From: a virus | Reading direction: 5' to 3' (one strand) | Virus record (IMG/VR): IMGVR_UViG_3300042922_000850 | Location: 64,001-128,000 of that record | Length of the DNA stretch: 64,000 nucleotides | Shown here: positions 20,462-40,461 of the stretch, piece after piece | How positions within the stretch are numbered: position 1 is the first letter of the stretch | Layout: each line of letters begins with the position of its first letter | Program-made: the position numbers and the translations under genes | Notes under the pieces: generated by a model | Told to the model about the DNA's origin: nothing | Seen by the model: the letters and a program-made list of their open reading frames with translations, nothing else | Databases searched by the model: none

Positions 20462-20512
20462 AATAAGCTTCACCTCTCTTAATAATATTAAACGTTATAT
20501 CCGTCTGGAAAT

Positions 20513-20523
20513 ATTATAGCACA
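20513..20523 (-). promoter_or_regulatory. class II extended -10 (TGTGCTATAAT)
   Basis: About 50 nt upstream of the 20461 start. Confidence 0.55.
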
Positions 20524-20550
20524 AATGAGTTCAATTTTAAAAGTCTATCT

Positions 20551-21095
20551 ATTATATGTCCATGGACATATAATTTGGACACGAAAAATTATATGTCCAG
20601 AAATAAATTACCCTCTGCTACAGTATTTAAAAAAATCCGTGGACATGTAATTTTATTGTAAAAATTTAGATGTCCATGATATTTCGTTGATATACAATGG
20701 TTTCGTCTTTTTTGGACATGAAAACGTGGACTTTTGAAAAACAAACCCCTCTCGGTAGAATTTTTTTTAATGATATTTATATCTTATGTCCATTTTTTGA
20801 AAAAAATTTTTTATTTAAGGTATATGTCTGCAAAAGAAAAGTCCATTAATTTGGTTTTACCATAGCTATCATTATTATTATTATTTATATATATATAATA
20901 GAATAGTTGATAATAAGCGCATACGTCATTTGGGACAAGCCAACAGTTTGGGAAATTATGTATGGGTATGGTAAAACACCGTGGACTTTGACATAGGTTT
21001 TCGTGGACTTTGACATGGACTTTGACATACCTAAATGGACATATGGGGTAAAAAATGGACTTTTGACGTCCAAATTATCATCAAGAAGAGGTCCA
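20551..21095. repeat. non-coding iteron cluster around an AT-rich core; origin or terminus candidate
   Basis: 17 TGGAC/GTCCA copies, 24-bp palindrome at 20551-20574, three TGGACTTTGACAT copies. Confidence 0.75.
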
Positions 21096-21186
21096 AATGG
21101 CAAAACCCTTCATCTTTGACCTAGCATTTTAACTTTACCTCTTTTCCAGTATAAGAGATAAAACAAAACACAGGAGGAATAAAATT

Positions 21187-21381
21187 ATGAGACAAATAAG
21201 TAAAAAGACAATGGCAAAGTTAGACATTGTATCCGGAGTAATAGAAGTAACAGTGGGAGTTTTAGGAATGGTTACATTGGGAAAATCACCAAAGAGTTTG
21301 ATTGCAGCAGCATCATTGGTATTTGGAGCAGCAAATGTATGCTTTGGCATAGACGAAGCAGTGGAAGCAGCACAGGAATAA
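21187..21381 (+). CDS. small hydrophobic hairpin protein
   Basis: Cassette gene, AGGAGG RBS. Confidence 0.7.
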   Translation: MRQISKKTMAKLDIVSGVIEVTVGVLGMVTLGKSPKSLIAAASLVFGAANVCFGIDEAVEAAQE

Positions 21382-21394
21382 ACACAAGGATAGA

Positions 21395-21424
21395 GAAACA
21401 AAAGGACATATGTCCTTTTGTTTC
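21395..21424. terminator. 30-bp perfect palindrome
   Basis: GAAACAAAAGGACAT|ATGTCCTTTTGTTTC. Confidence 0.7.
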
Positions 21425-21431
21425 CGTTTCA

Positions 21432-21507
21432 ACCACGCCCACCACGTTGTTAATGATATCCGATGCCCAGCTTTATTCCTGCTGTTTTTCTAGTATAAGA
21501 GATAAAA
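21432..21507 (+). repeat. composite upstream element, copy 1
   Basis: ACCACGCCCACCACG, degenerate GGACA-N5-TGTCC, TTTATTC, class I motif. Confidence 0.75.
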
Positions 21508-21527
21508 CAAAACACAGGAGGAATAAA

Positions 21528-21752
21528 ATGAAAACAATAAAAACAATAATCGCATTTTTAAAGATAATAGGAAAGGTATTATTTAGTACAAGAGAAGAAA
21601 AAGAAAATATGAAATCAGTATTGAAAGCATATAACGATGCAGTACAGTCATATATGAAAGAAAATAATGTGAGTAGGGAAGTAGCAGAAGATGAAATGAA
21701 TGCAAGACTTCAGCGAGAAGCAATGAAAATGGAAAACAAGACAAGAGCGTAA
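21528..21752 (+). CDS. cassette protein, family A
   Basis: Start reassigned to ATG 21528; similar to 25802 and 27349. Confidence 0.7.
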   Translation: MKTIKTIIAFLKIIGKVLFSTREEKENMKSVLKAYNDAVQSYMKENNVSREVAEDEMNARLQREAMKMENKTRA

Positions 21753-21772
21753 GGCTCTTGTCTTTCGCTTCA

Positions 21773-21848
21773 ACCACGCCCACCACGTTGTCAAGGACAT
21801 CAGGTGTCCAGTTTTATTCTCGTCGTTTTTCTAGTATAAGAGATAAAA
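21773..21848 (+). repeat. composite upstream element, copy 2
   Basis: ACCACGCCCACCACG, GGACATCAGGTGTCC, class I motif. Confidence 0.8.
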
Positions 21849-21870
21849 TAAACAAATGGAGGAATTAAAA

Positions 21871-22164
21871 ATGGGTATGAGTATGGCAGGAAGAATTGTT
21901 GTATTAACAGAAAACGGAGCATTTGCAGTAGAAGAAGTAAAAGTTAAGGTTATAGAAGAATCAAGACAGTTTATAGTAAAGGAATGGGATGATACATTAA
22001 GTAAAGTAACAGCGTATGTAAGAGAAGATGGTTATGTAGATATGATTTACGAAGACGGGGTATGTCACACAGTAAATAAGGTATATTTTGAATCAATAGC
22101 ATTTGAAGGTGAGCTTGAAAATCAGAAGCAGATGGCAATAGAAGCAAAATTAATCAAAGCATAA
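21871..22164 (+). CDS. cassette hypothetical protein
   Basis: GGAGG RBS precedes ATG 21871. Confidence 0.7.
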   Translation: MGMSMAGRIVVLTENGAFAVEEVKVKVIEESRQFIVKEWDDTLSKVTAYVREDGYVDMIYEDGVCHTVNKVYFESIAFEGELENQKQMAIEAKLIKA

Positions 22165-22170
22165 ACAAAA

Positions 22171-22186
22171 GGGAGCGAAAGCTCCC
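22171..22186 (+). terminator. GGGAGC-GAAA-GCTCCC hairpin; identical copies at 23548 and 23857
   Basis: Follows stop codons in all three places. Confidence 0.75.
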
Positions 22187-22316
22187 TGTGTCTTTTTCCT
22201 TTACCCCGTCCACCTCGTGCACGAGGTTCTCTCGGACATGCCGTGTCCGTTTTATTCTCCATGTTTTTTTCCTATAAGAAAGAAAATAAAACAGAAAGAT
22301 AAAGAGGTAAGAGATT

Positions 22317-22535
22317 ATGAAAAAAGTAATGAAGGCAACAGTAATAGGATTAGGAATATTTATGATGGGAATGTATAGTTATGAAAGAGGAGTAAAGGAT
22401 ACAAAGGAAATATATGAAAAGGTATTAAGTAATCGAAACGAAGAATTAAATCAATTATTCAAAGAGGTATTGGATGAAAAGAATGAGAAAATTAGAGCAT
22501 TGAAAGCAGAAATATATAGGATGTCAGAGGCGTAA
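22317..22535 (+). CDS. N-anchored coiled-coil cassette protein
   Basis: Hydrophobic N-terminus. Confidence 0.7.
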   Translation: MKKVMKATVIGLGIFMMGMYSYERGVKDTKEIYEKVLSNRNEELNQLFKEVLDEKNEKIRALKAEIYRMSEA

Positions 22536-22664
22536 GCCTCGCATCTTTTTCTTCCAATGCTCTAATTTTCTCCGCTCACCATGCTGACCGGACATCCCAT
22601 GTCCACTTTATTCTCCCTGTTTTTCTCCTATAAGAAAGAAAACAATATTAGGAGGTAACACAAA

Positions 22665-22952
22665 ATGAAATTAGAAGAGTTCGGAATACAGGCAGTATTG
22701 GAAGTAAAAAGAATTAGAGTAACACCATGTTATGAAAGTAAATGGGAAATTATGTTAAAGTTAGATGACAGTGAAAAGGTATATGGGGAAAATATAAAAA
22801 ATCACGGGTATGTAGAAATATATAAAGGAAAGGCAATCGTAGGGCTAACGAGGTTAGACACTGAAACACAGGAAAAAATGGAAGATTTGGTACATATGTG
22901 TAAAACGGTAAAAGAAGTATGTGATTTATATTTTGAGGTTTATTATGACTAA
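22665..22952 (+). CDS. cassette hypothetical protein
   Basis: AGGAGG RBS. Confidence 0.7.
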   Translation: MKLEEFGIQAVLEVKRIRVTPCYESKWEIMLKLDDSEKVYGENIKNHGYVEIYKGKAIVGLTRLDTETQEKMEDLVHMCKTVKEVCDLYFEVYYD

Positions 22953-23031
22953 GGGCATTTGCCCTTAGTTTTATTTTCCCTATTTTCCACGTATAAGTAA
23001 GAAAATAAACAAAAGAAAGAAGGAATAAATT

Positions 23032-23541
23032 ATGAAATCAAGCATTAAGATAGTAGGAGCAACAACGGTAACAGCAACAGTGGCATTAGTAATTGGAATG
23101 ATGGCAAAGAGAAAAGTGAATCATCGAAGAAAAGAGAAAGAAGGATATTTATTAAAAGAATATTATGAGCACGGATATAGTGAAGGGCATAAGGACGGAT
23201 ACGAAGAGGGACAGCAGAAAATGGAGATTAAACCGGAGAAAACGGGAAGAAGTTATAGTTATGAGAAGTTCATGGACACTTTAAGAAGAAGTGAAGCAGG
23301 TGAGTTTGATTACACCGGATGGAAGATGGTAACATCGGAACAGTCAGGATTTGACAGAAATTATTACAACGGAAGAGTTGTATGGGGATATGATGGAGCA
23401 CCAGATGATGAGTTTTACTTCACAGTAGTAACAGAAGATGGGCACAACGCAAGGATAGTAAGCGTTATGAGAGCAGATGGAACAGAAATCAATTATGATG
23501 AATCATTTATTGTACAGTATTTTATACTGAGAACGTTTTAA
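23032..23541 (+). CDS. N-anchored protein with GxxxG repeats
   Basis: HGYSEGHKDGYEEG. Confidence 0.7.
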   Translation: MKSSIKIVGATTVTATVALVIGMMAKRKVNHRRKEKEGYLLKEYYEHGYSEGHKDGYEEGQQKMEIKPEKTGRSYSYEKFMDTLRRSEAGEFDYTGWKMVTSEQSGFDRNYYNGRVVWGYDGAPDDEFYFTVVTEDGHNARIVSVMRADGTEINYDESFIVQYFILRTF

Positions 23542-23624
23542 ACAAGAGGGAGCGAAAGCTCCCTTAAACTTTTCTCTTTTTCTCCTATAAGTAAGAAAAC
23601 AACGAAAGAGAGGATTTAAAGATT

Positions 23625-23846
23625 ATGGACAACGATAAAGTAATTAAAGAATGTAACATTGAAAGACAAACAGGATTTGCGGCAGAAAACAAAGTAAACG
23701 TAGTTTACGAGGACGGAATGGCAGAGAAGATATTAAATTATTACCCGGATGAATTATCATTCAGCGAAGAAGAATTTATAGGATTAACGAAGCAGCAGGC
23801 GAAGGATTTATTCCATAAAAAAGACATAGCATATTTACAAAGCTAA
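23625..23846 (+). CDS. cassette hypothetical protein
   Basis: YYPDELSF...DIAYLQS. Confidence 0.7.
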   Translation: MDNDKVIKECNIERQTGFAAENKVNVVYEDGMAEKILNYYPDELSFSEEEFIGLTKQQAKDLFHKKDIAYLQS

Positions 23847-23891
23847 ATAAATAAAAGGGAGCGAAAGCTCCCTGGACTTTTTCTTTTTGTA

Positions 23892-24809
23892 TCAGGCTTT
23901 TCTTGGAGATTTGTCAAAGAATATCGATCGCTTCGTATACGGGGTGACTTTGTGAACTCCGATATAATCTTGATTGGGATTTATAATTCTCTCTATTCTG
24001 TTCTTTTCTCCAAGTATCTCGGATTCTTTAATTGCTGCGGCAACATCATTATTTAACAACGGATAATGAGTCTCTTTATATCGCTGTAATTTATCATAAA
24101 TCTCCGGAGACCGCTTTGATCCTTGTTCTAAGTGTGTTAACTGTCTCTTTTTTGTTAAGTCCCCAGAAACTCCGTTATAACGAGAGATCCCACCCGACAT
24201 ATCAGTTATAAGATGGTTCCTTTTTGGGAATGCCAAGTTTTTCGGAAGGACATCTGATACTTTAATATTTTTTGGCAAATACTTACGAGAATGCTCATCT
24301 GTAATGCGGCGAATTTCTTTAATCTTCTTTTGATTTTTTGGTGTATCTCCAATTTCCTCAATCTCACCTACTATTCTATCAACAGTTCTCATCTCTTGTA
24401 GCTCTTTAATTTTACGCTCACCCTCATTAATAGGATGAGTGTGTAGATTTGAATAAGTGGAGTTATTGTTAATACGTGAATCCACTCTATGCTCTCTGAC
24501 CGGACCCGTTTTAATAGCCTTTACTTCACCTTTGTCTATCAGGGCAGCCAATTCTGTTTCACTTGGGAGTTTACGAGAAGTACTTTTTATTTTTTGATAT
24601 GCATTATTAGAAACATCTCCAAGCCCCATTTTTGCCTCAGCAAGCTCTCTTCCCGCTAACGCATTACCCTTTCTATCTCTTAGTTTGCGAAGTGCCCACT
24701 TCCAATTACCATCTGGGACTAAGCGAACCTTTTTTGCAATCTCATGGGCTTTACTTGCGGTTAAGGCCTCTTTATATATTTCGTTCTCATAATGAACCAC
24801 TTTATCCAC
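23892..24809 (-). CDS. basic protein with MDKVVHYENEIYKEA leader and HTHP motif; putative virion-internal protein
   Basis: GTG start 10 nt after AAGGAG; class II -10 at 24838-24847. Confidence 0.65.
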   Translation of the reverse strand: MDKVVHYENEIYKEALTASKAHEIAKKVRLVPDGNWKWALRKLRDRKGNALAGRELAEAKMGLGDVSNNAYQKIKSTSRKLPSETELAALIDKGEVKAIKTGPVREHRVDSRINNNSTYSNLHTHPINEGERKIKELQEMRTVDRIVGEIEEIGDTPKNQKKIKEIRRITDEHSRKYLPKNIKVSDVLPKNLAFPKRNHLITDMSGGISRYNGVSGDLTKKRQLTHLEQGSKRSPEIYDKLQRYKETHYPLLNNDVAAAIKESEILGEKNRIERIINPNQDYIGVHKVTPYTKRSIFFDKSPRKA

Positions 24810-24953
24810 GCCAACCACGCTCCTTCCTTTTGTAGTAATTATATCACAAACCTGTCGACCACGCACACCACGTTTTTCTGGTATAAGTAATAAAAGGAGG
24901 ATGTTAATGCCTTCTTTTGTAATCGACACAATAACAGAAAGGAGGGGCAGTTA

Positions 24954-25109
24954 ATGAATACCTCAATCAAAATAACTATTAAAGTACTTGGTTTTGTACC
25001 ATCGGTGTTTTTGAATTTAGCTTTGATATCTGCGGGTACAGGGGTAGCGCTAAGTGCTGGGAAAAACTTGGTAACGATATGTTCTAATGTAATGAAGACA
25101 GAGTTATAG
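24954..25109 (+). CDS. small hydrophobic cassette protein (51 aa, not in ORF track)
   Basis: AAAGGAGG RBS. Confidence 0.6.
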   Translation: MNTSIKITIKVLGFVPSVFLNLALISAGTGVALSAGKNLVTICSNVMKTEL

Positions 25110-25215
25110 CAGAGATATAGCAAGGAAGACAGAGTGGCAGTGCCACTCTGTCTTCACCATTATACCGCTTTTATCTGGTATAAGTAATAAAATAAAGAGA
25201 ATGGAGAATTTGATC

Positions 25216-25413
25216 ATGGAAGAGAAATTATACACAGAACAAGAAGTAATCGAGCATATGATAAGAGCAGTTAAGACTTATAAGGATGGGATAACCCTTG
25301 GCAGAAAAGAGGGAGCAGTAATAGGTATAGTAATTGGGGTGGTATTAGTAGCATCAATAGAAATTGGGAATGCGATTAGCCGAATGAAAGCTAAGAAGGA
25401 GGCAGAGGCGTAA
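25216..25413 (+). CDS. small single-TM cassette protein
   Basis: GAVIGIVIGVVLVAS. Confidence 0.65.
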   Translation: MEEKLYTEQEVIEHMIRAVKTYKDGITLGRKEGAVIGIVIGVVLVASIEIGNAISRMKAKKEAEA

Positions 25414-25485
25414 GCCTCTACTCTTTATTTTCTACTATTTTCTGGTACAAGAGATAAAATAAAGAGAATAGAGGAGAAATTAACT

Positions 25486-25632
25486 ATGGGAGCAAAAATC
25501 AGGATGGCAATAAGAACAATTGAAGCAATACAAGCAATGGGAGCAGTAATAGTAGTTGCGGCAGCAGCATATGGTGTAGGTTATAAACAAGGACACGAAG
25601 ACGGGCGGAGACAAGGCGTTAGATATAGATAA
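25486..25632 (+). CDS. small TM protein with GxxxG repeats (48 aa, not in ORF track)
   Basis: GAGGAG RBS; GYKQGHEDGRRQG. Confidence 0.6.
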   Translation: MGAKIRMAIRTIEAIQAMGAVIVVAAAAYGVGYKQGHEDGRRQGVRYR

Positions 25633-25801
25633 ATAGATGATTAACAGGGTGAGGAGCAATAGGCTCCTCCTGTTATTTGTCTGACCACGCCCACCACGTG
25701 CGCGATGTTTACAGCATGGTTATAAACTGCTATAAATTCTTGTATAAGTAATAAAAGAAGAACAACAATGTTCTTCCAAATATATTTTATGGAGGGTTTT
25801 C

Positions 25802-26050
25802 ATGAAAAAAACCGCATTTTATTTTAATGTAATACGTATAAGGTTATTTGGCACAAAAGAAGAGAGAGAAGACGAAAGAAGAGTGAGAAATCTTTATAAT
25901 AATATGATAATCGGATATATGGAAAAAGAAGGGCTGAAGAGCAAGCGAAAGGCAGAACGGCAATTAATTAACAGTCTAGAATTTTCTGCTCAAGAGGCAA
26001 GGAAAAAACGCGAAGAACAACGAAAATTGTGGAGGAAAGGTAATGTTTAA
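25802..26050 (+). CDS. cassette protein, family A
   Basis: LFGTKEE...YN...YM...AE. Confidence 0.7.
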   Translation: MKKTAFYFNVIRIRLFGTKEEREDERRVRNLYNNMIIGYMEKEGLKSKRKAERQLINSLEFSAQEARKKREEQRKLWRKGNV

Positions 26051-26234
26051 AGTAAAGGTATTTCCAGTCCCGTTTCGCAATATCGGGCTCGGATGTTATA
26101 TTGACACCCTCCATATAGGTCTTATCCCATTTATTAATCTTATTACAATGGAAGACACCCCATCCAGGCACCGAATTGATATTGGTTGGCTGTGCTTTTC
26201 TATCTTAATCCTTACCGGAAAGCGCAATACCTAA
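26043..26234 (+). CDS. cassette protein, family B (WLCF)
   Basis: Similar to the two repeats in 32893. Confidence 0.65.
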   Translation: MFKVKVFPVPFRNIGLGCYIDTLHIGLIPFINLITMEDTPSRHRIDIGWLCFSILILTGKRNT

Positions 26235-26247
26235 CCACGCCCACCAC

Positions 26248-26356
26248 GTGTGTCACACTACCTAGTAAATATATAAGGGGAGTGTGACACACAGTATGTT
26301 GTCAACCGCATATGATTGCAAACCAAGCTTGCAATCATATGCGGTTGACAACATAC
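26248..26356. repeat. two adjacent inverted repeats (12-bp and 28-bp arms)
   Basis: GTGTGTCACACT/AGTGTGACACAC; GTATGTTGTCAACCGCATATGATTGCAA with its perfect reverse complement. Confidence 0.9.
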
Positions 26357-26426
26357 ACTATACCGGTCTTTAATTCACGCCCTTTTCTGGTACAAGAAAT
26401 AAAACAAACAATAGGAGGAAGATAAA

Positions 26427-26624
26427 ATGAAAATCGGAACAGTAGTAGTAATCAGTACATTAACAGCAGCATTAGGATTTACAATAGGCATATTTGTAGG
26501 CGCAGTAGCAGGTGCAATAGCAGTATCAGAAATAATAACAGATAAGGAAGATGAAGACAGCAACGAAAGTGAAAGCAGTAATGAAAGTGAAAGCAGTAAA
26601 GACGTCTTCTCATTCCTTGTATAA
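26427..26624 (+). CDS. small TM protein with acidic tail
   Basis: Hydrophobic N-terminal half. Confidence 0.7.
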   Translation: MKIGTVVVISTLTAALGFTIGIFVGAVAGAIAVSEIITDKEDEDSNESESSNESESSKDVFSFLV

Positions 26625-26655
26625 GTAATAAAATAAAGAGAAAGGAGAGAGTATT

Positions 26656-26856
26656 ATGCAAAGCAGTATTACAATAGACGGCGGAGTTAATTTAGAAGCA
26701 CAAGAGATTAAAATAAGTAATATAGAAGGAAAGGCTGTCATTGAAATTGGAGCAATAAAAACAATTTTAGACGAAGGGGAATCTATTACAATCAAGTGTC
26801 AACAGGGGTTGCAATCATTAGAAATAGGGGATTTTGTCGTAGCATCAAAACAGTGA
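26656..26856 (+). CDS. cassette hypothetical protein
   Basis: AAAGGAG RBS. Confidence 0.65.
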   Translation: MQSSITIDGGVNLEAQEIKISNIEGKAVIEIGAIKTILDEGESITIKCQQGLQSLEIGDFVVASKQ

Positions 26857-26932
26857 TAGTGAAGAGGGGTTAAACCCCCTCTTCTTTCCTCGTATAAGTA
26901 ATAAAATAAAGAACGCAGAGGAGGAAGAATAT

Positions 26933-27136
26933 ATGGATTTAACAGCAGTGATAGCAAGAGTAAGAGCAGATGGTCACACTATAAGAGAGACAGAAAGTAC
27001 ATATCAGTTTTATGCAAATGACGAGTATATTAAATCGTTAGAAGTAAGAGGATTATTAGTGAAGGGAGATTGTCATAAGATAAGGAATAGCACATTTAGG
27101 CTATACAAAGAAAAATGGTACAAAAGGGCAAAGTAA
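26933..27136 (+). CDS. cassette hypothetical protein
   Basis: GAGGAGG RBS. Confidence 0.65.
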   Translation: MDLTAVIARVRADGHTIRETESTYQFYANDEYIKSLEVRGLLVKGDCHKIRNSTFRLYKEKWYKRAK

Positions 27137-27217
27137 TTGCCCTTTTGTCTCTTCTCTCATAAAATCCTTTATCTTATTGTATAAGTAATAAAATAAGAGA
27201 AAGGAGGTAATTTATAT

Positions 27218-27346
27218 ATGAAAGATAAGATAAAGGATTTAAGTACGGCAATGATGATAGTCATTACAGTAGGAGCAGCAGTTATAGCTGGAGCAATTGT
27301 ATTAGTTATATCTCGAATTAGAGATGCGATTAAGGGGAGACTTTAA
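27218..27346 (+). CDS. small single-TM protein (42 aa, not in ORF track)
   Basis: AAAGGAGGT RBS. Confidence 0.6.
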   Translation: MKDKIKDLSTAMMIVITVGAAVIAGAIVLVISRIRDAIKGRL

Positions 27347-27348
27347 TT

Positions 27349-27549
27349 ATGATGGTATTGATCGGGAGGATATTTAAAAACGTATTTGGCAAGAAAATGC
27401 AAGTAGATGATGTACAAGTTTTAGTTGAGGACCATGATGAAATAGTCTATCAATATATGAAGACTAATAAAGTAGATAGAGCAGCCGCAGAGAAGGAAGT
27501 AAACAAAATGATATTGGACTTAAAGGTAGTGAGAGAAAAGAGAGGTTAA
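27349..27549 (+). CDS. cassette protein, family A
   Basis: YMKTNKVDRAAAEKEVN. Confidence 0.65.
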   Translation: MMVLIGRIFKNVFGKKMQVDDVQVLVEDHDEIVYQYMKTNKVDRAAAEKEVNKMILDLKVVREKRG

Positions 27550-27628
27550 AACCTCTCTTTCACTATCATCTGGTATAAGTTATAAAACAAGAGAAGTCTT
27601 GTTATTTTATTTTTAAGGAGGTAAGGTT

Positions 27629-27847
27629 ATGTCCAACCCAATTAGGGACTGTGCAAATGCCCATAAGCGCACGGGAGAAATGTTAAATGATTTTCTTTAT
27701 GAAGATGGAAAACCATTATTGAAAGGAGGTAAACCGGGTGTGCGTAAGGACCATACAAAAGAAGAATTAGAACAGATGCTAGAAGGGATATTAATAAGTT
27801 CTTTTGAAAATTATAATGATATTGCGAATGAACTTGGCTGGGAATGA
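27629..27847 (+). CDS. hypothetical protein
   Basis: AAGGAGGT RBS. Confidence 0.65.
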   Translation: MSNPIRDCANAHKRTGEMLNDFLYEDGKPLLKGGKPGVRKDHTKEELEQMLEGILISSFENYNDIANELGWE

Positions 27848-27868
27848 TTTATATTAAGGAGGAGAAAG

Positions 27869-28201
27869 ATGAGCAACCAGAAGAAAAGATATTTTATCAT
27901 CACAATAATAGCACTTGTAGCTGTTATTGCAGGAGGCACTATTTTTAATAGCCGACTATTAGGTTCTATCGGATTAACAGCTTATGTAATAAATGCCACA
28001 ATAGACCTTGTACTTGCTTTTAAAAGAGATGAATTAATTTCACTAAGAGACCTGAGAATTTACAAAGAGTTTTTTGTGGACAATAAAGGCGTTTACATCT
28101 CGGCGGTTCTAATGTTTATAATAACATTACTGACCCCTGTAGTAATGTATGCTTTCTTTATAATCATCTGGATAAATACGATCAAAGAGTTTATAGGTTA
28201 A
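27869..28201 (+). CDS. multi-TM membrane protein
   Basis: About three hydrophobic helices. Confidence 0.7.
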   Translation: MSNQKKRYFIITIIALVAVIAGGTIFNSRLLGSIGLTAYVINATIDLVLAFKRDELISLRDLRIYKEFFVDNKGVYISAVLMFIITLLTPVVMYAFFIIIWINTIKEFIG

Positions 28202-28213
28202 GGAGGAAAGATT

Positions 28214-29104
28214 ATGGATTTATATTCAGTTGGACTAATGATTACTAAGCGGTGTAATTTCCATTGCGGGCATTGTATGTTTTCATGCAACGCAAAGGGT
28301 GACAATATGTCTGATGAGGTAATTAAAGCTGCAGGCTATTTTATTAGAGAAAATAACGTTGACCATGTAGCCATCTACGGCGGAGAACCATTTTTAAACA
28401 TCCCGCTCTTTGATAAAGTGCTTGACGAAGTTTATGATAGGGATATAGGATTTTTTGTGTCTACAAATGGGAGTTTTATGGGATCCAAGGCAAAAAGAGA
28501 GTATGTGTATAAACTGTTGTGTCGGATGAAAAACAATAGCTCTGAATTTACGGGCATCAGGGTATCAAACACCGTTTTTCATAATGCGTGTCGAACAGAA
28601 AAACAAAAGGCGTCTATCAAACAATTAAAATGGTGGATTAGTGATCCATATTCTTGGGTCGAAGATAATTATGACAGCTACGAAGAATGCTATGACGAAA
28701 ACCCTTTTGACTTTCCAAGGGGAAGGGGGTCATTATACATTGACCCGGAGAACGCGAGTGAAAAAATGAATCCTAGTGGGCGAGCTTTAAAACATGCTGA
28801 TATTCATGATAAAGCATGTCATTGTTCAATGACATGCAATACAAATGAGATTTATGACGAGTTTGAAATGAATATCAGTACGAACGGGGATATTTCAGTA
28901 TGTTGTTATTGCGACGGATGCGTTGTAGGAAATATACTAGAGGAAAATATTTGTCCAAGCGTAATATTCGAACGTACAAAGAAGCTGAATGAGTTTTTTA
29001 AAGAGAAGTATGATGTTCATCAAAAGACGAAGATGGTAGATATCTGCCAAATATGTAAGAAATACCGGATTGGACCAGATGGCATAAGAAAATATAGGAG
29101 GTAG
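28214..29104 (+). CDS. radical SAM protein with SPASM/twitch-like Cys-rich C-terminus
   Basis: CNFHCGHC, GGEPF, STNG; C-terminal NGDISVCC and CQIC. Confidence 0.9.
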   Translation: MDLYSVGLMITKRCNFHCGHCMFSCNAKGDNMSDEVIKAAGYFIRENNVDHVAIYGGEPFLNIPLFDKVLDEVYDRDIGFFVSTNGSFMGSKAKREYVYKLLCRMKNNSSEFTGIRVSNTVFHNACRTEKQKASIKQLKWWISDPYSWVEDNYDSYEECYDENPFDFPRGRGSLYIDPENASEKMNPSGRALKHADIHDKACHCSMTCNTNEIYDEFEMNISTNGDISVCCYCDGCVVGNILEENICPSVIFERTKKLNEFFKEKYDVHQKTKMVDICQICKKYRIGPDGIRKYRR

Positions 29105-29110
29105 TACATA

Positions 29111-29383
29111 GTGGCGATATACGAAATAACGATCACAAGAACAATTGAAGAGAAGCAAAAAATTTATGTTGAAAGCAGCACTGGGGTAATTCATAAGGTC
29201 CTCAGTAAACAAAATAATATCGACCAGAGTTTGGAGAGTTATGTTAAGAACGTTGGGAGAGAAATTGAAATATTAGATAAAGAGAAACCTAAGGTAAGAA
29301 AGCTCACAATGGGTTCAATATCACATTGGTGCAAACGAATTGGTCCAGGACAATATATTTGGAATGATGCACCGGGGAGGTAA
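29111..29383 (+). CDS. hypothetical protein
   Basis: AGGAGG RBS, GTG start. Confidence 0.6.
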   Translation: MAIYEITITRTIEEKQKIYVESSTGVIHKVLSKQNNIDQSLESYVKNVGREIEILDKEKPKVRKLTMGSISHWCKRIGPGQYIWNDAPGR

Positions 29384-29384
29384 T

Positions 29385-29597
29385 ATGACAAGAAAAGAAA
29401 TGTTTGTTAATTGGGCGGTAACTACTTCGGGTGTCTATTTTATAAATGTTATGATGTTTTCATTTACGAATGATATGATGGCCTTCAGAGCGATCAATCC
29501 CACCGCTTATACAGCTGTAGGCATAGGACAAATAATTGCCGATGTTATTTTAATAATAGCTCTTTCTCGTTATCTTTTTAAACGAAAGAGTAAATAA
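29385..29597 (+). CDS. small two-TM protein
   Basis: Start reassigned after GGAGG. Confidence 0.6.
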   Translation: MTRKEMFVNWAVTTSGVYFINVMMFSFTNDMMAFRAINPTAYTAVGIGQIIADVILIIALSRYLFKRKSK

Positions 29598-29639
29598 AAA
29601 TTTTAGGAATAAAAATATTCTGGTATAAGAAAGAAAAGG

Positions 29640-29711
29640 AAAGCAGTAGCTCAGATGGGAGAGCACCAGTATTAATACTGAGGGTGGCAGGTTCGATACC
29701 TGTCTGCTTTT
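29640..29711 (+). tRNA. tRNA-like RNA or pseudo-tRNA; anticodon undetermined (6-nt loop), no encoded CCA
   Basis: Acceptor AAAGCAG/CTGCTTT; D arm GCTC-AGATGGGA-GAGC; T arm GCAGG-TTCGATA-CCTGT; anticodon arm 16 nt. Confidence 0.8.
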
Positions 29712-29783
29712 GTTTTCATTGTTTTTAAAAAACAATGTATTTCTAGTATAAGGAATAAAACAAAACAAAGGAGGTTCATAAGT

Positions 29784-29996
29784 ATGAACGAGGAAGTATA
29801 CGAGACAACAGAAGAGGTAACAGAGGCAGTAGCAGGTATGGATGACAATCGAATAAAGATTGCAGTAGTAGCAGTAGCGGGGGTTGTATTATTAGCAGGA
29901 GCAGGTTTTACATGGCTGAAGTTAAGAAAGAAAAAGAAATTGGCAGTATCAGATGCAGACATCGATTTAGATGAAGTTGCAGCAGACGAACAATAA
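29784..29996 (+). CDS. small single-TM protein
   Basis: TM helix followed by LRKKKK. Confidence 0.7.
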   Translation: MNEEVYETTEEVTEAVAGMDDNRIKIAVVAVAGVVLLAGAGFTWLKLRKKKKLAVSDADIDLDEVAADEQ

Positions 29997-30093
29997 GGTT
30001 TAAGAACCGGGGGCATATGCCCTTGGTTCTTTTCTGCTAATTGAGCGGATTTTATTGTATAAGAAATAAAACAAATGAAAGGAGAATTAAAGT

Positions 30094-30279
30094 ATGGACG
30101 CAACAACAGATAAGAAAGTAGGAGAGGTATTAGTACAGACAATTGTATTAACTTCAAAAGAAGGAACATTAAAAGGATTTATCGCAGGATGTATTGTAAC
30201 AGGGATAGCAATAGGTGGTATTTATATTGCAAACAAACATGGAATAGCAATTAAAAGCTTCATCAAAGAAAAGATTTAA
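30094..30279 (+). CDS. small single-TM protein
   Basis: GFIAGCIVTGIAIGG. Confidence 0.65.
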   Translation: MDATTDKKVGEVLVQTIVLTSKEGTLKGFIAGCIVTGIAIGGIYIANKHGIAIKSFIKEKI

Positions 30280-30375
30280 ATATATAGGAGGCGCTTGCCT
30301 CCTATATTCTTTCTTTTGATGTTGAATTTTCTTGTATAAGAAATAAAAGAATAATAGATAATGGAGGATACGAGA

Positions 30376-30552
30376 ATGAGAAAGTTGATAAGAAGAAAAA
30401 TCAAAGAGACAATGGTAAGCGTAGGATTTAAGTTAGTAACTACAGTTATGGCACTTGTAATGACGGCAAAAGAGTTGTGGAATATGAGAGAAACCAGGAA
30501 AGACATTAATAAAATGAAAAGAATGTGGAGCGAATGGGCAAACGAAAAATAA
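30376..30552 (+). CDS. small basic cassette protein
   Basis: GGAGG RBS before ATG 30376. Confidence 0.6.
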   Translation: MRKLIRRKIKETMVSVGFKLVTTVMALVMTAKELWNMRETRKDINKMKRMWSEWANEK

Positions 30553-30581
30553 AGAAAAGAGGAGGCGTTGCCTCCTCTAAG

Positions 30582-31547
30582 TCATTTTTTTATTCCAAAT
30601 AAGCTACTAACATAATCGGATACATTCTTGCTAGCGACTATAGGGGCTCTTTTTTTGAAATTTTCTTCTGCTACTTGCTTTTCCATTTGGTCAGCAAGTT
30701 TTTTATCATAAACACCGCTATCACCATATTTTAAACCATAAGTTTCATAAGTTTTACCCTTCTGAAACTTCTTAGCGCCAGGATACATTTTTAAATATTT
30801 AGGGTCTGCAGTTTCTCCTGAAGTGGCCCGAAGTGCTTTATAGAAATTTCTTGTGTGCAAAGGAGCAACTGCAACATTAGCAGATTCCCTTGCAATTACT
30901 TTGGGAGATACGTGAGCACTATTGCCGATTTGCTCTGGCCGAAAATCATGTTTAATCATGCCATTCTTCTTGTTTTTTAATTTCTTCTCAACCTGTTGAG
31001 TAGCTCTGTTTTCATCTACTTCATGTCTAAGACTAATCGCCTTATTCCATTTATCAAAATCTTTTTTTACCGGTTTACTCATGCTAAAAACATGTTCTTT
31101 CTGATAAACATTATCTGCAAACTCTTGGTCAATTTTTGATTTTGATGGTGCATAAGCTACCCTGCTCTTCGACACAGATCCGGCACCGTCTTTTACTCCG
31201 GATATACTCCGAGAAGCGGCTTCAAAATTTACCTTCAGCGCTTTTTCAGCAGGATTAATACCCTTGCTTTTAAATTTTTGTTCGGCTACATATTCTGCAT
31301 TAGGCTTATGGATATCCTTAAACAGTGCTTTTCCATAAGTTAGTGGATTGGATGTTGTCTTAACCTTATAATCTTTAGCGATTGCTTTCGTTCCCTTTTC
31401 CAATCCCTTTAGTTCCCTGTTGTAATTTAGGATATTCTTTTTTACTAACTCTCTACGAGCAAGATCAGATAAAGTACCGAGTTCTCGTTTCCATGCTCTA
31501 CTGGCTTCTTTATAAATTAGTTCTTCATATGCTGCGATTTTATCCAT
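30582..31547 (-). CDS. basic protein with MDKIAAYEELIYKEA leader; putative virion-internal protein
   Basis: AAGGAG RBS; class II -10 at 31581-31590; LRHEVDE motif. Confidence 0.7.
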   Translation of the reverse strand: MDKIAAYEELIYKEASRAWKRELGTLSDLARRELVKKNILNYNRELKGLEKGTKAIAKDYKVKTTSNPLTYGKALFKDIHKPNAEYVAEQKFKSKGINPAEKALKVNFEAASRSISGVKDGAGSVSKSRVAYAPSKSKIDQEFADNVYQKEHVFSMSKPVKKDFDKWNKAISLRHEVDENRATQQVEKKLKNKKNGMIKHDFRPEQIGNSAHVSPKVIARESANVAVAPLHTRNFYKALRATSGETADPKYLKMYPGAKKFQKGKTYETYGLKYGDSGVYDKKLADQMEKQVAEENFKKRAPIVASKNVSDYVSSLFGIKK

Positions 31548-31689
31548 CTATACAAGTCTCCTTTGCTTGGGTTTAGAATAATTATATCACGACCTCGCCC
31601 ACAACGCACTTCACTGCATTTCACCGTACCCTTTATTCCATGCTCTTTTCTAGTATAAGAAATAAAACAATACATAGGAGGAAAATAGC

Positions 31690-32004
31690 ATGACAGAGGT
31701 AATGAAAGAAGCAATGAAAGAACTTGAAGTTTTAAGAAAGCAAGAAGAAAGAGTGAAGACAATAATTTTTAATGAACTGGCTGATAAAGATGGGCCAATG
31801 TTAGAAGAAGGGTTTACAATTCACGCAAAGAAATTTAGCAGTGTAGAAGTGGCAAAGCTTTTAGGAGTACACGTACATACATTACGCAGATGGATACAAT
31901 CTGGTAAATTAGTGGCAGAAACAGGAATGGGACCGCATGGAATACAAATACATGAATGGGCGTTAAAAGAGTTTATTAGAAAAAACAGAGAGGTTTTTAT
32001 TTAA
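31690..32004 (+). CDS. excisionase/MerR-like HTH protein
   Basis: FSSVEVAKLLGVHVHTLRRWIQSGKL. Confidence 0.8.
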   Translation: MTEVMKEAMKELEVLRKQEERVKTIIFNELADKDGPMLEEGFTIHAKKFSSVEVAKLLGVHVHTLRRWIQSGKLVAETGMGPHGIQIHEWALKEFIRKNREVFI

Positions 32005-32108
32005 AGAGGCAACCGCCTCTTTAAAATTTGTTGTTTTATTGTATAAGAAATAAAACAACAAATAATAGTAACAGAAAGTGGGGAATAATAAATAGGAGGA
32101 TACGTATT

Positions 32109-32216
32109 ATGGGAGTAATTAAAAGCGTAAACAAGCAAACGATTGTATTGGTAGTAATTGGATCAGCAATAGGATTTATTACAACTTTGGCAGCGGAAGC
32201 ATCCAGAAGAAAATAG
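32109..32216 (+). CDS. 35-aa single-TM peptide
   Basis: AGGAGG RBS. Confidence 0.55.
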   Translation: MGVIKSVNKQTIVLVVIGSAIGFITTLAAEASRRK

Positions 32217-32346
32217 GATAAGAGGAATTAGGGGAGAGTCAGCTCCCCTAAACCTTCGTCTTTTTGTCAAAAACTTATATTATAAAACCAGACAGGTTTC
32301 TAGTATAAGAAAGAAAAGAAGTATATAAGAAAGAAGGAGAGATAGT

Positions 32347-32697
32347 ATGAAAATGCAGAATGTAATTTTAGGAACAGTTGTAGTAGGGATAGCAATTATT
32401 GTAACAACAGCGGTAATAACGACAAAAGTTATAAAAAAGAAGGCAGGTGATAAGCAAACACCAGAACATCTGGAGGAGAGTGGTGAAGTATCTTTTTATA
32501 AAGAAAAGTTTAATATCGATACAGAGGCGGCAGAAGCAATCGCATCGACTATGGATATCGTCATGGCAGAATTAGAGGAAGCGGATAGACCGGCATCGAG
32601 AGAGAATTTAATCGAAGCAATACAAGATGAATTTAATATAGGGGTTAACCCGGAAGACATTGTGGATGCATACATAGCATATTGCAACATGGATTAG
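32347..32697 (+). CDS. N-anchored acidic protein
   Basis: N-terminal TM helix. Confidence 0.7.
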   Translation: MKMQNVILGTVVVGIAIIVTTAVITTKVIKKKAGDKQTPEHLEESGEVSFYKEKFNIDTEAAEAIASTMDIVMAELEEADRPASRENLIEAIQDEFNIGVNPEDIVDAYIAYCNMD

Positions 32698-32892
32698 AGG
32701 ATGAGGGACATTAAGTGTCCCTCAAATTTTCTTCATCTTATCGTATAAGTAATAAAAGAAAAAGGTGAATAGAAATAAATATATAAGATAGGCGCCTATT
32801 CACACCGCAGTTTGACAAAATGCGGTATATAATGTGCAGACAGCAATAGCAGACAAATATTTGTCTGACTTTTATTTTTAGGGGGTAATTTT

Positions 32893-33288
32893 ATGAAAAA
32901 AATGAAGACATTTATTCAAAATGAAAGGCTTAATTTGGGTGTAGGTATAGATACCGGTGAATGGCAGTTAACACCATCCTTTAGTATCTATTTTGAGAGA
33001 GATTGGTACAATAGCCGGCTAATCCAGTTTTCATGGCTCTGCTTCTTTATCGCCGGTGTAGTGTATAGTAAAGAGCATTTGCATGCACAGGCGATAAAAG
33101 ATATTGAAAAAACCAACTACCTTTTTACTAACAAAAAGGTAGTTGTAATGGCTAAGATTGCCACATATACATGGGAAGTCTTGCCGGTAATTGGATATGC
33201 CCAATTACCGGATAATCCCGAACACGGAACTATATTTGAAGTAACATGGTTATGTTTCACGTTCGGTGCATCTTTTTATAAACAATAA
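32893..33288 (+). CDS. family B protein with two WLCF repeats
   Basis: FSWLCF and VTWLCF. Confidence 0.7.
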   Translation: MKKMKTFIQNERLNLGVGIDTGEWQLTPSFSIYFERDWYNSRLIQFSWLCFFIAGVVYSKEHLHAQAIKDIEKTNYLFTNKKVVVMAKIATYTWEVLPVIGYAQLPDNPEHGTIFEVTWLCFTFGASFYKQ

Positions 33289-33413
33289 AGAGATAAAAGA
33301 GCGGGGGATTTTGCCCTAACTGGTTCACTTTTGAGGTACAAAATCAAAAATAAATATTTTAAAAGGTTAAATTAAAATTCAGGGCATTAATAAGTAGTGC
33401 AGATTGGAGAAAA

Positions 33414-33572
33414 ATGAACGTTGAAAGAATGGGAAAAAACTTTGAATTATGTATCAGAGACGAATCCAATCTTATAGTTGCATGGCAAGCGGGGATGTCA
33501 GAAGAAGATATTAATGATATGTTAAAAAGACATTTTGGATGGCGAAGAAGTCATGCATATGTAGAGAGCTAA
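33414..33572 (+). CDS. small hypothetical protein (52 aa, not in ORF track)
   Basis: GGAG RBS. Confidence 0.5.
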   Translation: MNVERMGKNFELCIRDESNLIVAWQAGMSEEDINDMLKRHFGWRRSHAYVES

Positions 33573-33667
33573 ACTGAAAAGTAGCGGTGGGTGAAAATAT
33601 ATTCTTCGCTCCTGAGTTTTTCCTTTTTCTGGTATAAGAAACAAAAGGATTAAAGGAGGATAATATT

Positions 33668-33811
33668 ATGAACGAAGCAAGTATGGGGTTAGACCAAGAA
33701 CAACGAATGAAAGAAGTTGAACGAAGAGTTCAGAACGAAATAAGTCACGGAGAGATTTTAACTGAGAAGGAATTTAACAGCATTATAGAGGATGTAATGA
33801 AAACAAATTGA
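33668..33811 (+). CDS. small cassette protein (47 aa, not in ORF track)
   Basis: AAAGGAGG RBS after class I motif. Confidence 0.6.
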   Translation: MNEASMGLDQEQRMKEVERRVQNEISHGEILTEKEFNSIIEDVMKTN

Positions 33812-33964
33812 GAGAGGAGCTTATGCTCCTTTTTAATTTCTTCTTTTTTTTGGTATAAGAAAGAAAATAAGAGAATGTAATGTAATTCTCTTAAGTTTGT
33901 TTTCATTTGTAACATAGGAAGTAAGACAAAAGAAAATATTAAATAATTCAAGGAGGATTCACAA

Positions 33965-34492
33965 ATGCAGATTTTAACAAAGGGAACAATGATTGCAACG
34001 GTTATCGTGTCAGGGGCAACAGCAGTAACATCTATAGTAGTATCCGCAAGAGAGAAAAAGAAATCAGGTAAACTTCTAAGTGAAATGTGTGATGCATATG
34101 AGGAGTTGTCAAAGAAAAATGCCGATATGAGCAAAACTATTGAGGCGAACAACGCTTTTATGTCTAGGGCGGAAAACGAACTTACAGAAAGAGCTAAGAA
34201 CATCCGTGAACTATCCAGAGATAAAGTTTCTCTCGAAGGAAAACTTACTATTGAGAAAAACATATCGAAAACGTCATTTAACAATGGATTTTCAGCAGGT
34301 GACGAAGCAGGATATGCTCGTGGTTATGAAACTGGATTTAAAGAAGGCAAGAAAGCCGGAGTAAAAGAAAGTAAGAAGATTGATAAGGAAACTACCGATA
34401 GCACAGCTGCTCCTGGTAAAGAACGCAAAAAGAGAGAAAGTAAGAGCACAGAGAGTAAGAATGTGGCTGGCGAAGAAACGTTGGGCAAATAA
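33965..34492 (+). CDS. N-anchored coiled-coil protein with GxxxG repeats
   Basis: GFSAGDEAGYARGYETGFKEGKKAG. Confidence 0.7.
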   Translation: MQILTKGTMIATVIVSGATAVTSIVVSAREKKKSGKLLSEMCDAYEELSKKNADMSKTIEANNAFMSRAENELTERAKNIRELSRDKVSLEGKLTIEKNISKTSFNNGFSAGDEAGYARGYETGFKEGKKAGVKESKKIDKETTDSTAAPGKERKKRESKSTESKNVAGEETLGK

Positions 34493-34503
34493 GGATAATG
34501 GGC

Positions 34504-34531
34504 TATCAGGAGGCTACATAGCCTCCTGATA
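34504..34531 (+). terminator. hairpin
   Basis: TATCAGGAGGCTA-CA-TAGCCTCCTGATA followed by TTTT. Confidence 0.7.
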
Positions 34532-34698
34532 TTTTGCTATGTCAATTTAGCAAAATGCTTTTATTTTTTACTTCTCGTATAAGAAAGAAAAGGGGGATAT
34601 TTTCTTCTTTTCTTTCTTGCTATCATGATTTTACAATGATAAAATAGAAAGAAAAATGCGTTACAAAGGGTAAAAATATTAATATAGGAGGCAAAATT

Positions 34699-34932
34699 GT
34701 GGAGAAACAAGTACCGGGTAATGAGCCAGTGGGAACAGGCTTTTTAAACACAGCTGATATACTGGGCAATCCCTGTGATATAAGAAACAGTTCAATTATG
34801 ACTGTTCTTTATTACTTACAAAACGCAACAAATTTTGTTATTTGTGACGAGCAAGGTAATAGATACTTGATATCTGAAACAAAGTATGAAAAAGAAACTG
34901 GATCAATACTATTAGAAATTAAAAGAAAGTAA
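34699..34932 (+). CDS. hypothetical protein
   Basis: AGGAGG RBS. Confidence 0.6.
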   Translation: MEKQVPGNEPVGTGFLNTADILGNPCDIRNSSIMTVLYYLQNATNFVICDEQGNRYLISETKYEKETGSILLEIKRK

Positions 34933-34944
34933 GGGAGATAAATT

Positions 34945-35925
34945 ATGATGACCTATGATGAATTTAAAGCAAATGTTTCAACGGATGTTCTTAATTATTT
35001 ACCAGGTGGAGCAGACGAATGGATAGCGGGAGTTAAACCTATCAGAAAGACAAACCAAATTCTTGATGGCCTTTTGATCTTAAGAACAAATCAGGAAACA
35101 GAGAAAGTGGCCTGCCCTATTATATATCTAGAGCAATGTTACAAATATATAAAAGAGGGTGCCCATTCATACGAAAACGTATTAGAGAGTATTGCTGATG
35201 GATACCTAAAGGAACTGAAGGCGCACGAACAGATTGTCGATAAAGCGGACATCTGTAAAGAAAGCGCATCCGATCATCTTTTTTGCACTGTAATTAACGT
35301 GGAAAAGAACGAGAAATTACTTGCCTGCACCCCCCATCAAATCAAACATGGCCTTGCGATTATTTGCAAGTGGCTTTTTAGCAAGGATGAGGATGGGTTA
35401 GTAACAGCTTTGGTCAATGAAGGCATTATGAAAGAGCAATTAAACATGGATGAGGATGAAATGTTTTCGCTTGCAATGAAGAATACAAAACGGATGTTCC
35501 CAACAAAGATCTGCCCTATCTGTGTGAGTGTTGAAAAAACATTGGAACGGATGGGAATGCCAAAAGAAATGATAAAGAAAGCAGTAAAAGAAATTACTCC
35601 AGAAAACGATATGTTTGTTGTCTCAAACGATATTGGGCAAAACGGAGCCATCAACTTTTTATATGATGAAACGTTACTTCGGTTATCAGATATAATGAAA
35701 GGTAATTTTTATATTCTGCCCTCTAGTATTCACGAAGTGATTGCAGTAAGAGATCCTAACAAATATACTGGGTATAGCGAACAAGTGGCACGGAATATGC
35801 TGGAAACGGTTATGGAGGTAAACAAGACCGAGGTTTCTGCCCCCGATTTTTTATCAGACAGCGTTTATTATTATGAATGGCTATCTGAGAAGATGACCAT
35901 AAAGAAAGCAAGCACACAACAATAA
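34945..35925 (+). CDS. DUF5688-like protein
   Basis: FYILPSSIHEVI, MEVN...FLSDSVYYY. Confidence 0.8.
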   Translation: MMTYDEFKANVSTDVLNYLPGGADEWIAGVKPIRKTNQILDGLLILRTNQETEKVACPIIYLEQCYKYIKEGAHSYENVLESIADGYLKELKAHEQIVDKADICKESASDHLFCTVINVEKNEKLLACTPHQIKHGLAIICKWLFSKDEDGLVTALVNEGIMKEQLNMDEDEMFSLAMKNTKRMFPTKICPICVSVEKTLERMGMPKEMIKKAVKEITPENDMFVVSNDIGQNGAINFLYDETLLRLSDIMKGNFYILPSSIHEVIAVRDPNKYTGYSEQVARNMLETVMEVNKTEVSAPDFLSDSVYYYEWLSEKMTIKKASTQQ

Positions 35926-39178: not shown

Positions 39179-39190
39179 GGTGGGTGTTTT

Positions 39191-39829: not shown

Positions 39830-39854
39830 GAAATAAGTTTAATTTGAAAGGAGG

Positions 39855-40130: not shown

Positions 40131-40149
40131 AATTAATGGAGGAAAGAAT

Positions 40150-40428: not shown

Positions 40429-40461
40429 CCATTTCTATAAACAAAGACTTCGTGAGGTAAA

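Follow-up and report, generated by a model that had tools for sequence, protein, structure and literature searches.

A 13.4-kb block of mostly small genes, at positions 21149-34591 of the 64,000-nucleotide window analyzed here, is probably a hyperplastic region of early-class genes, built from insulated, recombining cassettes, in a 167-kb phage of Clostridia-type hosts. The window comprises bases 64001-128000 of a 166,758-bp IMG/VR phage record (IMGVR_UViG_3300042922_000850); positions are those of the window unless given as genome positions or assigned to a relative. Within the block, referred to below as the array, about 29 self-contained mini-genes follow one another on the plus strand, most of them behind a copy of the same promoter-like motif and closed by a terminator-like hairpin.

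The motif, (G/C)TA(T/C)AAG-N3-(T/G)AAAA (STAYAAG-N3-KAAAA), is matched at 32 sites of the window, every one of them on the plus strand, against 0.14 expected from shuffled sequences. The array contains 26 exact copies and a 27th, at 33632, with C replacing T/G, in agreement with the count of 27 in an earlier reading of the window (the sequence-only reading). Across the whole genome the exact pattern occurs 41 times on the plus strand and never on the minus strand. The array is 8% of the genome yet holds 26 of these 41 copies, while the other 15 lie outside it; it is thus a signal of the genome as a whole, present at very high density in the array, and the idea that it is specific to the array does not hold. 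The information profile of a logo built from the 43 sites that fit the pattern with T, G, or C ahead of AAAA extends the signal to about 25 nucleotides (nt), TTTTCTnGTATAAGwAAKAAAAnAA. The signal is conserved across the clade: the same motif, again strand specific, is found in relatives whose fused RNA polymerase (RNAP) is 72%, 60%, 51%, 43%, and 41% identical and whose GC content ranges from 32 to 46%. A 46%-GC phage is among the relatives that keep it, and a 32%-GC relative has the variant GTATAAGATATTAAAG. The densest 13.4 kb contains 8 to 10 promoters in distant relatives versus 26 here; on this genome comparison, extreme promoter density is a property of the sub-lineage.

The surroundings of the motif give each unit the appearance of a self-contained promoter, ribosome-binding site, open reading frame (ORF), and terminator, as the sequence-only reading had described. 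Terminator-like sites are enriched five-fold in the region (38, compared with 7.0 ± 2.8 in shuffles), and of the 27 promoters, 20 have a hairpin with a free energy of −11 kcal/mol or lower no more than 100 nt upstream. In 19 of 26 cases the distance from the end of the motif to the ATG is 21 to 31 nt, with a strong AGGAGG-type site between. The units are insulated from one another: 20 are monocistronic, three are bicistronic, one is a five-gene operon, and one is a tRNA unit. The size range first proposed for the products, 35 to 175 amino acids (aa), stands with the exception of a 296-aa radical S-adenosylmethionine (SAM) protein. For the tRNA unit, the 5' end of the tRNA falls 2 nt past its motif (29639, with the motif at 29623-29637), a spacing that puts the start of transcription within the AAAA run. 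Besides this tRNA, the array encloses two late-type genes in antisense orientation (23892-24818 and 30582-31547).

Several of these parts recur verbatim. A promoter plus 5' untranslated region is identical over 38 bp (37 in the sequence-only reading) at 21148 and 21492, ahead of two unrelated ORFs. The 16-nt terminator GGGAGCGAAAGCTCCC is present in three copies, at 22171, 23548, and 23857, and a second terminator, GAGGCGTAAGCCTC, in two, at 22527 and 25405 (the latter one position from where it had been placed). An intergenic composite of 132 nt is also repeated, at 77% identity.

Another repeated element of the array is C-rich: (A/T)CCACGCCCACCACG(T), with its variants, occurs in eight copies in a single orientation, at 21429, 21770, 22200, 24802, 24855, 25681, 26231, and 31589. 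All five copies that fit the tight pattern are inside the array, with none in the rest of the genome, and most copies stand directly past terminators; related copies are present in the relative L096, described below. Two copies stand ahead of the TGATATAAT boxes of the antisense genes, and the remaining copies have no −10 box. The element could be a regulator site, or it could be rut-like or Chi-like; it may also form part of the antisense genes' late promoter.

The gene content of the array was compared with that of a 94.9-kb JGI contig (L096; also L092), which was reached via a homologue of the 1173-aa protein encoded at the left flank. A search of IMG/VR for related loci by single flanking proteins found none, and megablast of the array against 50,697 GenBank phage records gave no DNA match. 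L096 shares the layout of this genome: the large gene, the origin-like region, and then, at the same position, 21 promoters in 12.3 kb, an antisense tagged gene included. Homologues of just 6 of the 37 array genes were found in this contig at E < 1e-5, with their order kept, whereas 12 of the 18 genes in the module directly downstream are common to both genomes, almost gene for gene. On the strength of this contrast we conclude that the array is, at the sequence level, a hyperplastic but colinear region that changes by gain, loss, and replacement, and that its turnover is rapid. With L093, a 45%-identical relative, no plus-strand array gene is held in common; the one homologue is that of the antisense gene at 23892, and it lies outside the L093 array. 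Distant homologues of the 97-aa protein of cassette 3 are found directly behind a terminator-GTATAAG unit, one of them in a different gene neighborhood. Contigs of the closest RNAP relatives (72 to 77% identical) stop at about 62 to 64 kb in the frame of this genome, short of the array. Two independent ones, L007 and L008 (79 and 122 kb; RNAP 72% identical), end there just ahead of the long run of small plus-strand genes, perhaps because repeats, or strain variation in the variable region, broke the assembly.

Nucleotide alignment to L096 is confined to two cassettes, and the edges of both tracts coincide with the shared parts. The tract at 21812-22187 (84% identity) runs from 22 nt upstream of a promoter through the final base of a terminator, and that at 23548-23888 (77%) opens with the initial base of a terminator and closes shortly after the next one. 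In L096 the two tracts overlap in one terminator, while here 1360 bp, containing three cassettes, intervenes between two identical terminator copies; for this reason we interpret the three-cassette indel, from the aligned sequences, as the trace left by repeated terminators that underwent homologous recombination with each other. The second difference is a two-gene insertion, including a DUF5688 gene, after the promoter-leader at 34577 that is common to both genomes. The alignment of related genomes that the sequence-only reading had called for thus found gain and loss, with the mapped junctions at a terminator and a promoter-leader and with content far from fixed. It also found no reordering of array genes relative to L096: all six to eight anchors are colinear, and turnover therefore proceeds by replacement and indel, not by shuffling of order. 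The proposal of a recombination-shuffled library survives to this extent, through the one indel with breakpoints in a duplicated terminator and the low synonymous divergence of two cassettes, and loses its reordering component.

That low divergence points to recent exchange. The proportion of synonymous differences (pS) is 0.31 and 0.42 in the two alignable cassettes, 3 and 7 in that order (synonymous divergence [dS], 0.40 and 0.63), whereas seven genes that flank the array or anchor the comparison have reached saturation, at 0.75 to 0.83; these two cassettes were therefore exchanged between lineages long after the genomes diverged. Their ratios of nonsynonymous to synonymous divergence (dN/dS), 0.20 and 0.30, indicate that the two small ORFs with a close homologue are real genes.

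In the mechanism that we propose, an intrinsic terminator would end the message from upstream, and the approximately 25-nt promoter of the phage clade would follow some 10 to 70 nt on. Transcription would start within the AAAA run and produce a short leader, with a strong Shine-Dalgarno sequence about 12 to 20 nt later, and each unit would then yield the product of a small ORF, which is often a membrane protein with a single pass. Terminators and promoter-leader segments, being nearly identical, would form islands of homology between otherwise unrelated cassettes, at which general, not site-specific, recombination would delete, insert, or swap whole cassettes between coinfecting relatives. Gene content would turn over quickly in this way, while the surviving anchors would stay colinear. 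We infer both the frequency of such recombination and the enzymes involved.

The repeated parts might instead be alike through convergent or purifying selection, with turnover produced by unrelated illegitimate events for which the motifs are in no way special. Promoters that belong to one class are bound to resemble one another, GC hairpins with a GNRA cap are common as terminators, and cross-matches between cassettes mostly span 26 to 60 nt. We consider this explanation unlikely, since the 132-nt composites are repeated at 77% identity, the 38-bp run is identical ahead of unrelated ORFs, both ends of the three-cassette indel fall in the same 16-nt hairpin, and the homology tracts of the recently exchanged cassettes stop at promoter-upstream and terminator edges. 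A site-specific system resembling an integron, in which the motif would be a recombination site rather than a promoter, would account for many short cassettes with a repeated boundary motif, and perhaps for the second oriented element, CCACGCCCACCACG, which is otherwise unexplained. It is very improbable, because the motif keeps a fixed distance to the ribosome-binding site, the ATG, and the 5' end of the tRNA, also stands in front of sigma and replication genes located far from the array, and accompanies anchors that are colinear with L096. No match to a tyrosine recombinase (PF00589), serine recombinase or resolvase (PF00239), integrase, or RecA family protein was found across the whole 166.8-kb genome, which extends the absence of an integrase beyond the window, where it had first been asserted. 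Some considerations do weigh against recombination at shared parts: functional selection could by itself keep promoters and terminators alike; the low dS values were measured on 97 and 69 codons; and a single relative spans the array, with two junctions mappable to the base and the other replaced cassettes too diverged for breakpoint placement.

As to which polymerase reads the GTATAAG promoters, features of the signal lead us to lean modestly towards the phage's own fused beta-beta' RNAP, working with a phage factor, over the host enzyme with sigma-A. The logo has no TTGACA or other −35 element, all 43 sites carry a G where sigma-70 promoters have T(−7), and conservation continues past the start site to +5, as is typical of phage-polymerase promoters. 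Group 1 sigma factors need a T at −7. A scan of the region for sigma-70-type promoters found 55 sites versus 54.3 in shuffles, which is no enrichment, and the phage does use the canonical TTGACA-17-TATAAT elsewhere, in one perfect copy. Because sigma and replication genes lie behind GTATAAG promoters and late-type genes behind TATAATwA boxes, the GTATAAG class would come earlier in the cascade, and the phage enzyme, if it is the reader, must then arrive with the virion. The possibility that host sigma-A RNAP reads these as early promoters that lack a −35 and resemble an extended −10, just as happens in SPO1 and T4, with the phage RNAP serving a later class, is less probable and has several points in its favor. 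The core TATAA resembles a −10 element, and TGG precedes TATAAG in 9 of the 27 promoters, an arrangement like an extended −10 that host sigma-A could recognize; near −35 there are also a T-rich tract of UP-like character and, some 22 nt upstream, a weak TTTTA. With sigma and replication genes behind the promoter, its reader must be present at infection, and the RNAP gene itself is on the late-type strand, so that early expression needs either a virion-delivered enzyme or the host polymerase. Retention of the motif over phages of 32 to 46% GC could be explained by the universal conservation of sigma-A. Finally, promoter activity, start sites, timing, and polymerase are all things that we infer from sequence. 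A bolder form of the phage-RNAP reading is a host-independent immediate-early program, in which injected virion RNAP would fire the approximately 27 insulated promoters by the origin-like region as the DNA enters, the shared parts would let the clade trade cassettes, and CCACGCCCACCACG would perhaps supply recombination or anti-nuclease signals; we regard it as doubtful.

Other promoter features of the genome were recorded alongside. Four GTATAAG promoters outside the array, at window positions 2206, 7338, 44374, and 54689, are followed immediately by a stable hairpin in which the initial AAAA is paired to a U-run (z-scores, −3.3 to −6.4). This type of leader hairpin is also present at the array promoters 25742, 27573, and 33853; the leaders of most array promoters are unstructured. 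Such a promoter-proximal hairpin could be a 5' stabilizer, or a terminator that needs antitermination. The minus-strand late-type genes (structural genes, tagged genes, and RNAP) have (C)ATATAAT(A/T)A boxes (TATAATwA) without a −35 element, for example, upstream of genome positions 1061-1522, 38771-40447, and 137439-137756, and these boxes resemble −10 elements of the sigma-E/K type. The sole perfect TTGACA-17-TATAAT promoter is at genome position 25044 on the minus strand, ahead of a 124-aa gene, and the next gene downstream is HU-like, as annotated by synteny with L007.

The array products are for the most part ORFans: 33 of the 35 proteins scanned have no Pfam or PHROG family, the exceptions being the radical SAM protein and a helix-turn-helix protein of the excisionase/MerR type, and the PHROG scan found no array protein homologous to SPO1 products. 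Hydrophobic segments of transmembrane (TM) length are present in 15 of 37. Paralogy was rejected as the source of the array, since its proteins have no paralogues in the genome apart from the tagged antisense gene; the plus-strand cassettes are therefore a collection of unrelated genes, not an expanded family. An ESM Atlas search with a 169-aa protein gave no functional lead. Judging from the architecture, the likely task of the products is to act on the host at an early stage of infection, such as in takeover, superinfection exclusion, or counter-defense.

A non-coding, origin-like region (20474-21148) separates the array from the divergent 1173-aa gene. The 675 bp from the large gene to the first promoter contain 14 of the window's 34 TGGAC(A/T)T iterons (TGGACAT / TGGACTTTGACAT), all within 20556-21062, and an AT-rich run at about 20870-20905; the region is kept in L096 at 2057-2570, where it is separated from the large gene by one additional cassette. 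Iterons, AT-rich run, and conservation in L096 together support a candidate replication origin or another protein-binding region, which agrees with the putative origin that the sequence-only reading had placed next to the array. The record ends share a 127-bp overlap, which indicates a circular assembly and is an overlap of assembly only.

The first cassettes are all on the plus strand. Cassette 1 (21149-21428; promoter 21149) encodes a 64-aa protein with two TM segments (21187-21381) and ends in a hairpin at about 21397-21426. Cassette 2 (21493-21769; promoter 21493), which shares the 38 bp with cassette 1, has a 74-aa ORF at 21528-21752 and a terminator at 21738-21764. Cassette 3 (21834-22187; promoter 21834; terminator 22170-22187) encodes an acidic 97-aa protein (21871-22164) and corresponds to L096 3716-4094, with 84% nucleotide and 85% amino acid identity. 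The AlphaFold2 model of this protein (predicted local distance difference test score, 75.6) gives a weak hint of an SH3/Tudor-like barrel plus a helix, and a Foldseek search with the model returned no informative fold match. The three cassettes missing from L096 follow at 22188-23547 (promoters 22272, 22628, and 22991; ORFs 22317-22535, 22665-22952, and 23032-23541), with an identical copy of GGGAGCGAAAGCTCCC at either edge as judged from the alignment and blastn boundaries. Cassette 7 (23548-23888) has a terminator at 23548, a promoter at 23585, a 73-aa ORF at 23625-23846, and a bidirectional terminator at 23856-23873, and it is 77% identical in nucleotides to L096 4078-4405.

The two late-type genes on the minus strand share a MDKIAxYExxIYKEA-type tag that is present elsewhere in the genome, TGATATAAT boxes, and bidirectional terminators at their ends. 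The feature at 23892-24848, encoding about 308 aa, has the tag start VDKVVHYENEIYKEA and its box at about 24836-24848; its product is 40% identical to that of a gene in L093/L094 and has no Pfam or PHROG match. The second (30582-31591; 321 aa) starts with MDKIAAYEELIYKEA, has its box at about 31580-31591, and is 41% identical to L096 11260-12117, where position and orientation are the same.

Between the antisense genes, nine plus-strand units occupy 24881-27567, with promoters at 24881, 25178, 25445, 25742, 26390, 26619, 26892, and 27179 and their terminators. The ORFs in these units encode 42 to 82 aa, five of them with a TM segment, and one, at 26933-27136, has a counterpart of 41% identity at L096 8844-9020. 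The only long operon (27573-29622) starts from promoter 27573 with its leader hairpin and contains five ORFs, at 27629-27847, 27869-28201 (three TM segments), 28214-29104 (radical SAM/SPASM), 29111-29383, and 29385-29597 (one TM segment). The 296-aa radical SAM/SPASM protein (Pfam PF04055/PF13186) is 48% identical to L096 9914-10777; its N terminus matched NCBIfam peptide-maturase and viperin-type models, all far below cut-off. Its companions in the operon are four small proteins, two of them membrane proteins, and the operon may be a phage-borne peptide-modification system. In the tRNA cassette (29623-29712, plus strand), the tRNA at 29639-29712 has its own promoter and almost no 5' leader. 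It was called tRNA-Ile (aat) by ARAGORN, an anticodon that would be unusual in bacteria, and scored 41.7 bits against the Rfam tRNA model, the sole match in the Rfam scan. Three monocistronic cassettes (29746-30578; promoters 29746, 30057, and 30334) then encode proteins of 70, 61, and 58 aa with one TM segment each and end in a bidirectional terminator at 30558-30578.

Beyond the second antisense gene, six plus-strand units at 31653-34531 have promoters at 31653, 32041, 32303, 32743, 33632 (the C variant), and 33853. They include the excisionase/MerR-type protein (31690-32004) and a 175-aa TM protein with a weak L096 homologue (33965-34492). The last promoter, at 34577, and its structured leader, common to L096 14041-14186, are followed by two plus-strand genes, the whole spanning 34577-35925. 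Both genes, a 77-aa ORF (34699-34932) and the DUF5688 gene (34945-35925), are missing from L096 and come after the shared promoter-leader. The nearest relatives of the DUF5688 protein are at most 31% identical and carry names from Lachnospiraceae and Clostridia, among them Eubacterium, Clostridium, and Anaerosporobacter; they hint at the range of hosts and at the capture of genes from mobile elements of the host. These homologues were ruled out as syntenic relatives of the locus, with identity of no more than 31% and no synteny.

The fused RNAP is a single 2301-aa protein containing both Rpb2 (beta) and Rpb1 (beta') domains, encoded at genome positions 25094-31999 on the minus strand (L002:5094-11999:-), in a late-type operon that adjoins terminase and head genes. 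It marks a large uncultivated clade of 220 confirmed IMG/VR loci, many on contigs of 130 to 180 kb; one match carries the name Priestia megaterium. The genome also encodes a DnaE-type DNA polymerase III alpha subunit, a primase, a Rad50/SbcC-like ATPase, and, near the array, an SbcCD-like pair. Its one sporulation-type (SigF/G/E/K-like) sigma factor, at genome positions 49491-50150, and its replication genes are downstream of GTATAAG promoters. The uncultivated phage is probably lytic and probably infects Clostridia-type hosts. Nothing relevant came from literature searches on GTATAAG in the role of a phage promoter or on phage RNAPs of the fused beta-beta' kind.

The closest parallel is with the promoter-early stem-loop (PeSL) cassettes of hyperplastic regions in T4-type phages (Arbiol et al. 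2010, PMC2839356; Comeau et al. 2014, PMC4122927). In both cases composite terminator/promoter units populate a variable region, each just upstream of a small ORFan, and the indels and replacements seen in relatives fall at these units while the flanking core modules stay colinear. Recombination between nearby PeSL units yields encapsidated mini-circles (PMC2839356, PMC4122927). The array differs in that its promoter is not sigma-70-like and is probably read by a phage RNAP, its hairpin is upstream of the promoter instead of interleaved with it, and its density is higher, at one promoter per approximately 500 bp. The phage itself is not T4-type but has a DnaE-type polymerase, a fused beta-beta' RNAP, and probably a Clostridia host.

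SPO1's host-takeover module, as far as a 1998 source is represented by its citation in PMC6873191, is likewise a segment of about 12 to 13 kb with some 25 to 35 small genes and strong promoters and ribosome sites, in a large phage of Gram-positive hosts, with a presumed role in early host remodeling. From the same account, SPO1 uses host sigma-A early promoters and mostly multigene operons, and the module is in the terminal redundancy, whereas the units here are mostly monocistronic and the promoter is noncanonical. The analogies to SPO1 and PeSL, both drawn by the sequence-only reading, thus apply to the architecture and fail for the promoter, which is unlike the host sigma-70-like promoters of both. 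Jumbo phages of the phiKZ/AR9 type, with a virion-packaged multisubunit RNAP (reviewed in PMC7598289), offer a parallel for the polymerase: a phage multisubunit RNAP, early genes with a conserved class of promoter that is AT-rich and lacks a −35, and an RNAP gene among late and structural genes. They differ in having two split-subunit sets rather than one fused 2301-aa enzyme; the genome here is smaller than 200 kb, and virion packaging of its RNAP is hypothetical. Integrons, with an IntI-type tyrosine recombinase, attI/attC sites, and promoterless cassettes, are unlike the array, which has no recombinase and in which every cassette has its own promoter. We conclude that the array belongs to the PeSL/host-takeover kind, in a new phage clade with a promoter of non-host type.

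The array extends the PeSL/host-takeover principle, that of insulated, self-expressing mini-genes swapped at shared regulatory parts, to an uncultivated clade of fused-RNAP phages that probably infect Clostridia. The contrast in dS is direct sequence evidence of single cassettes moving between deeply diverged genomes. The array also offers a 25-nt candidate promoter for the fused RNAP, and its approximately 35 small, mostly membrane-directed ORFans are candidates for roles in takeover, exclusion, and counter-defense.

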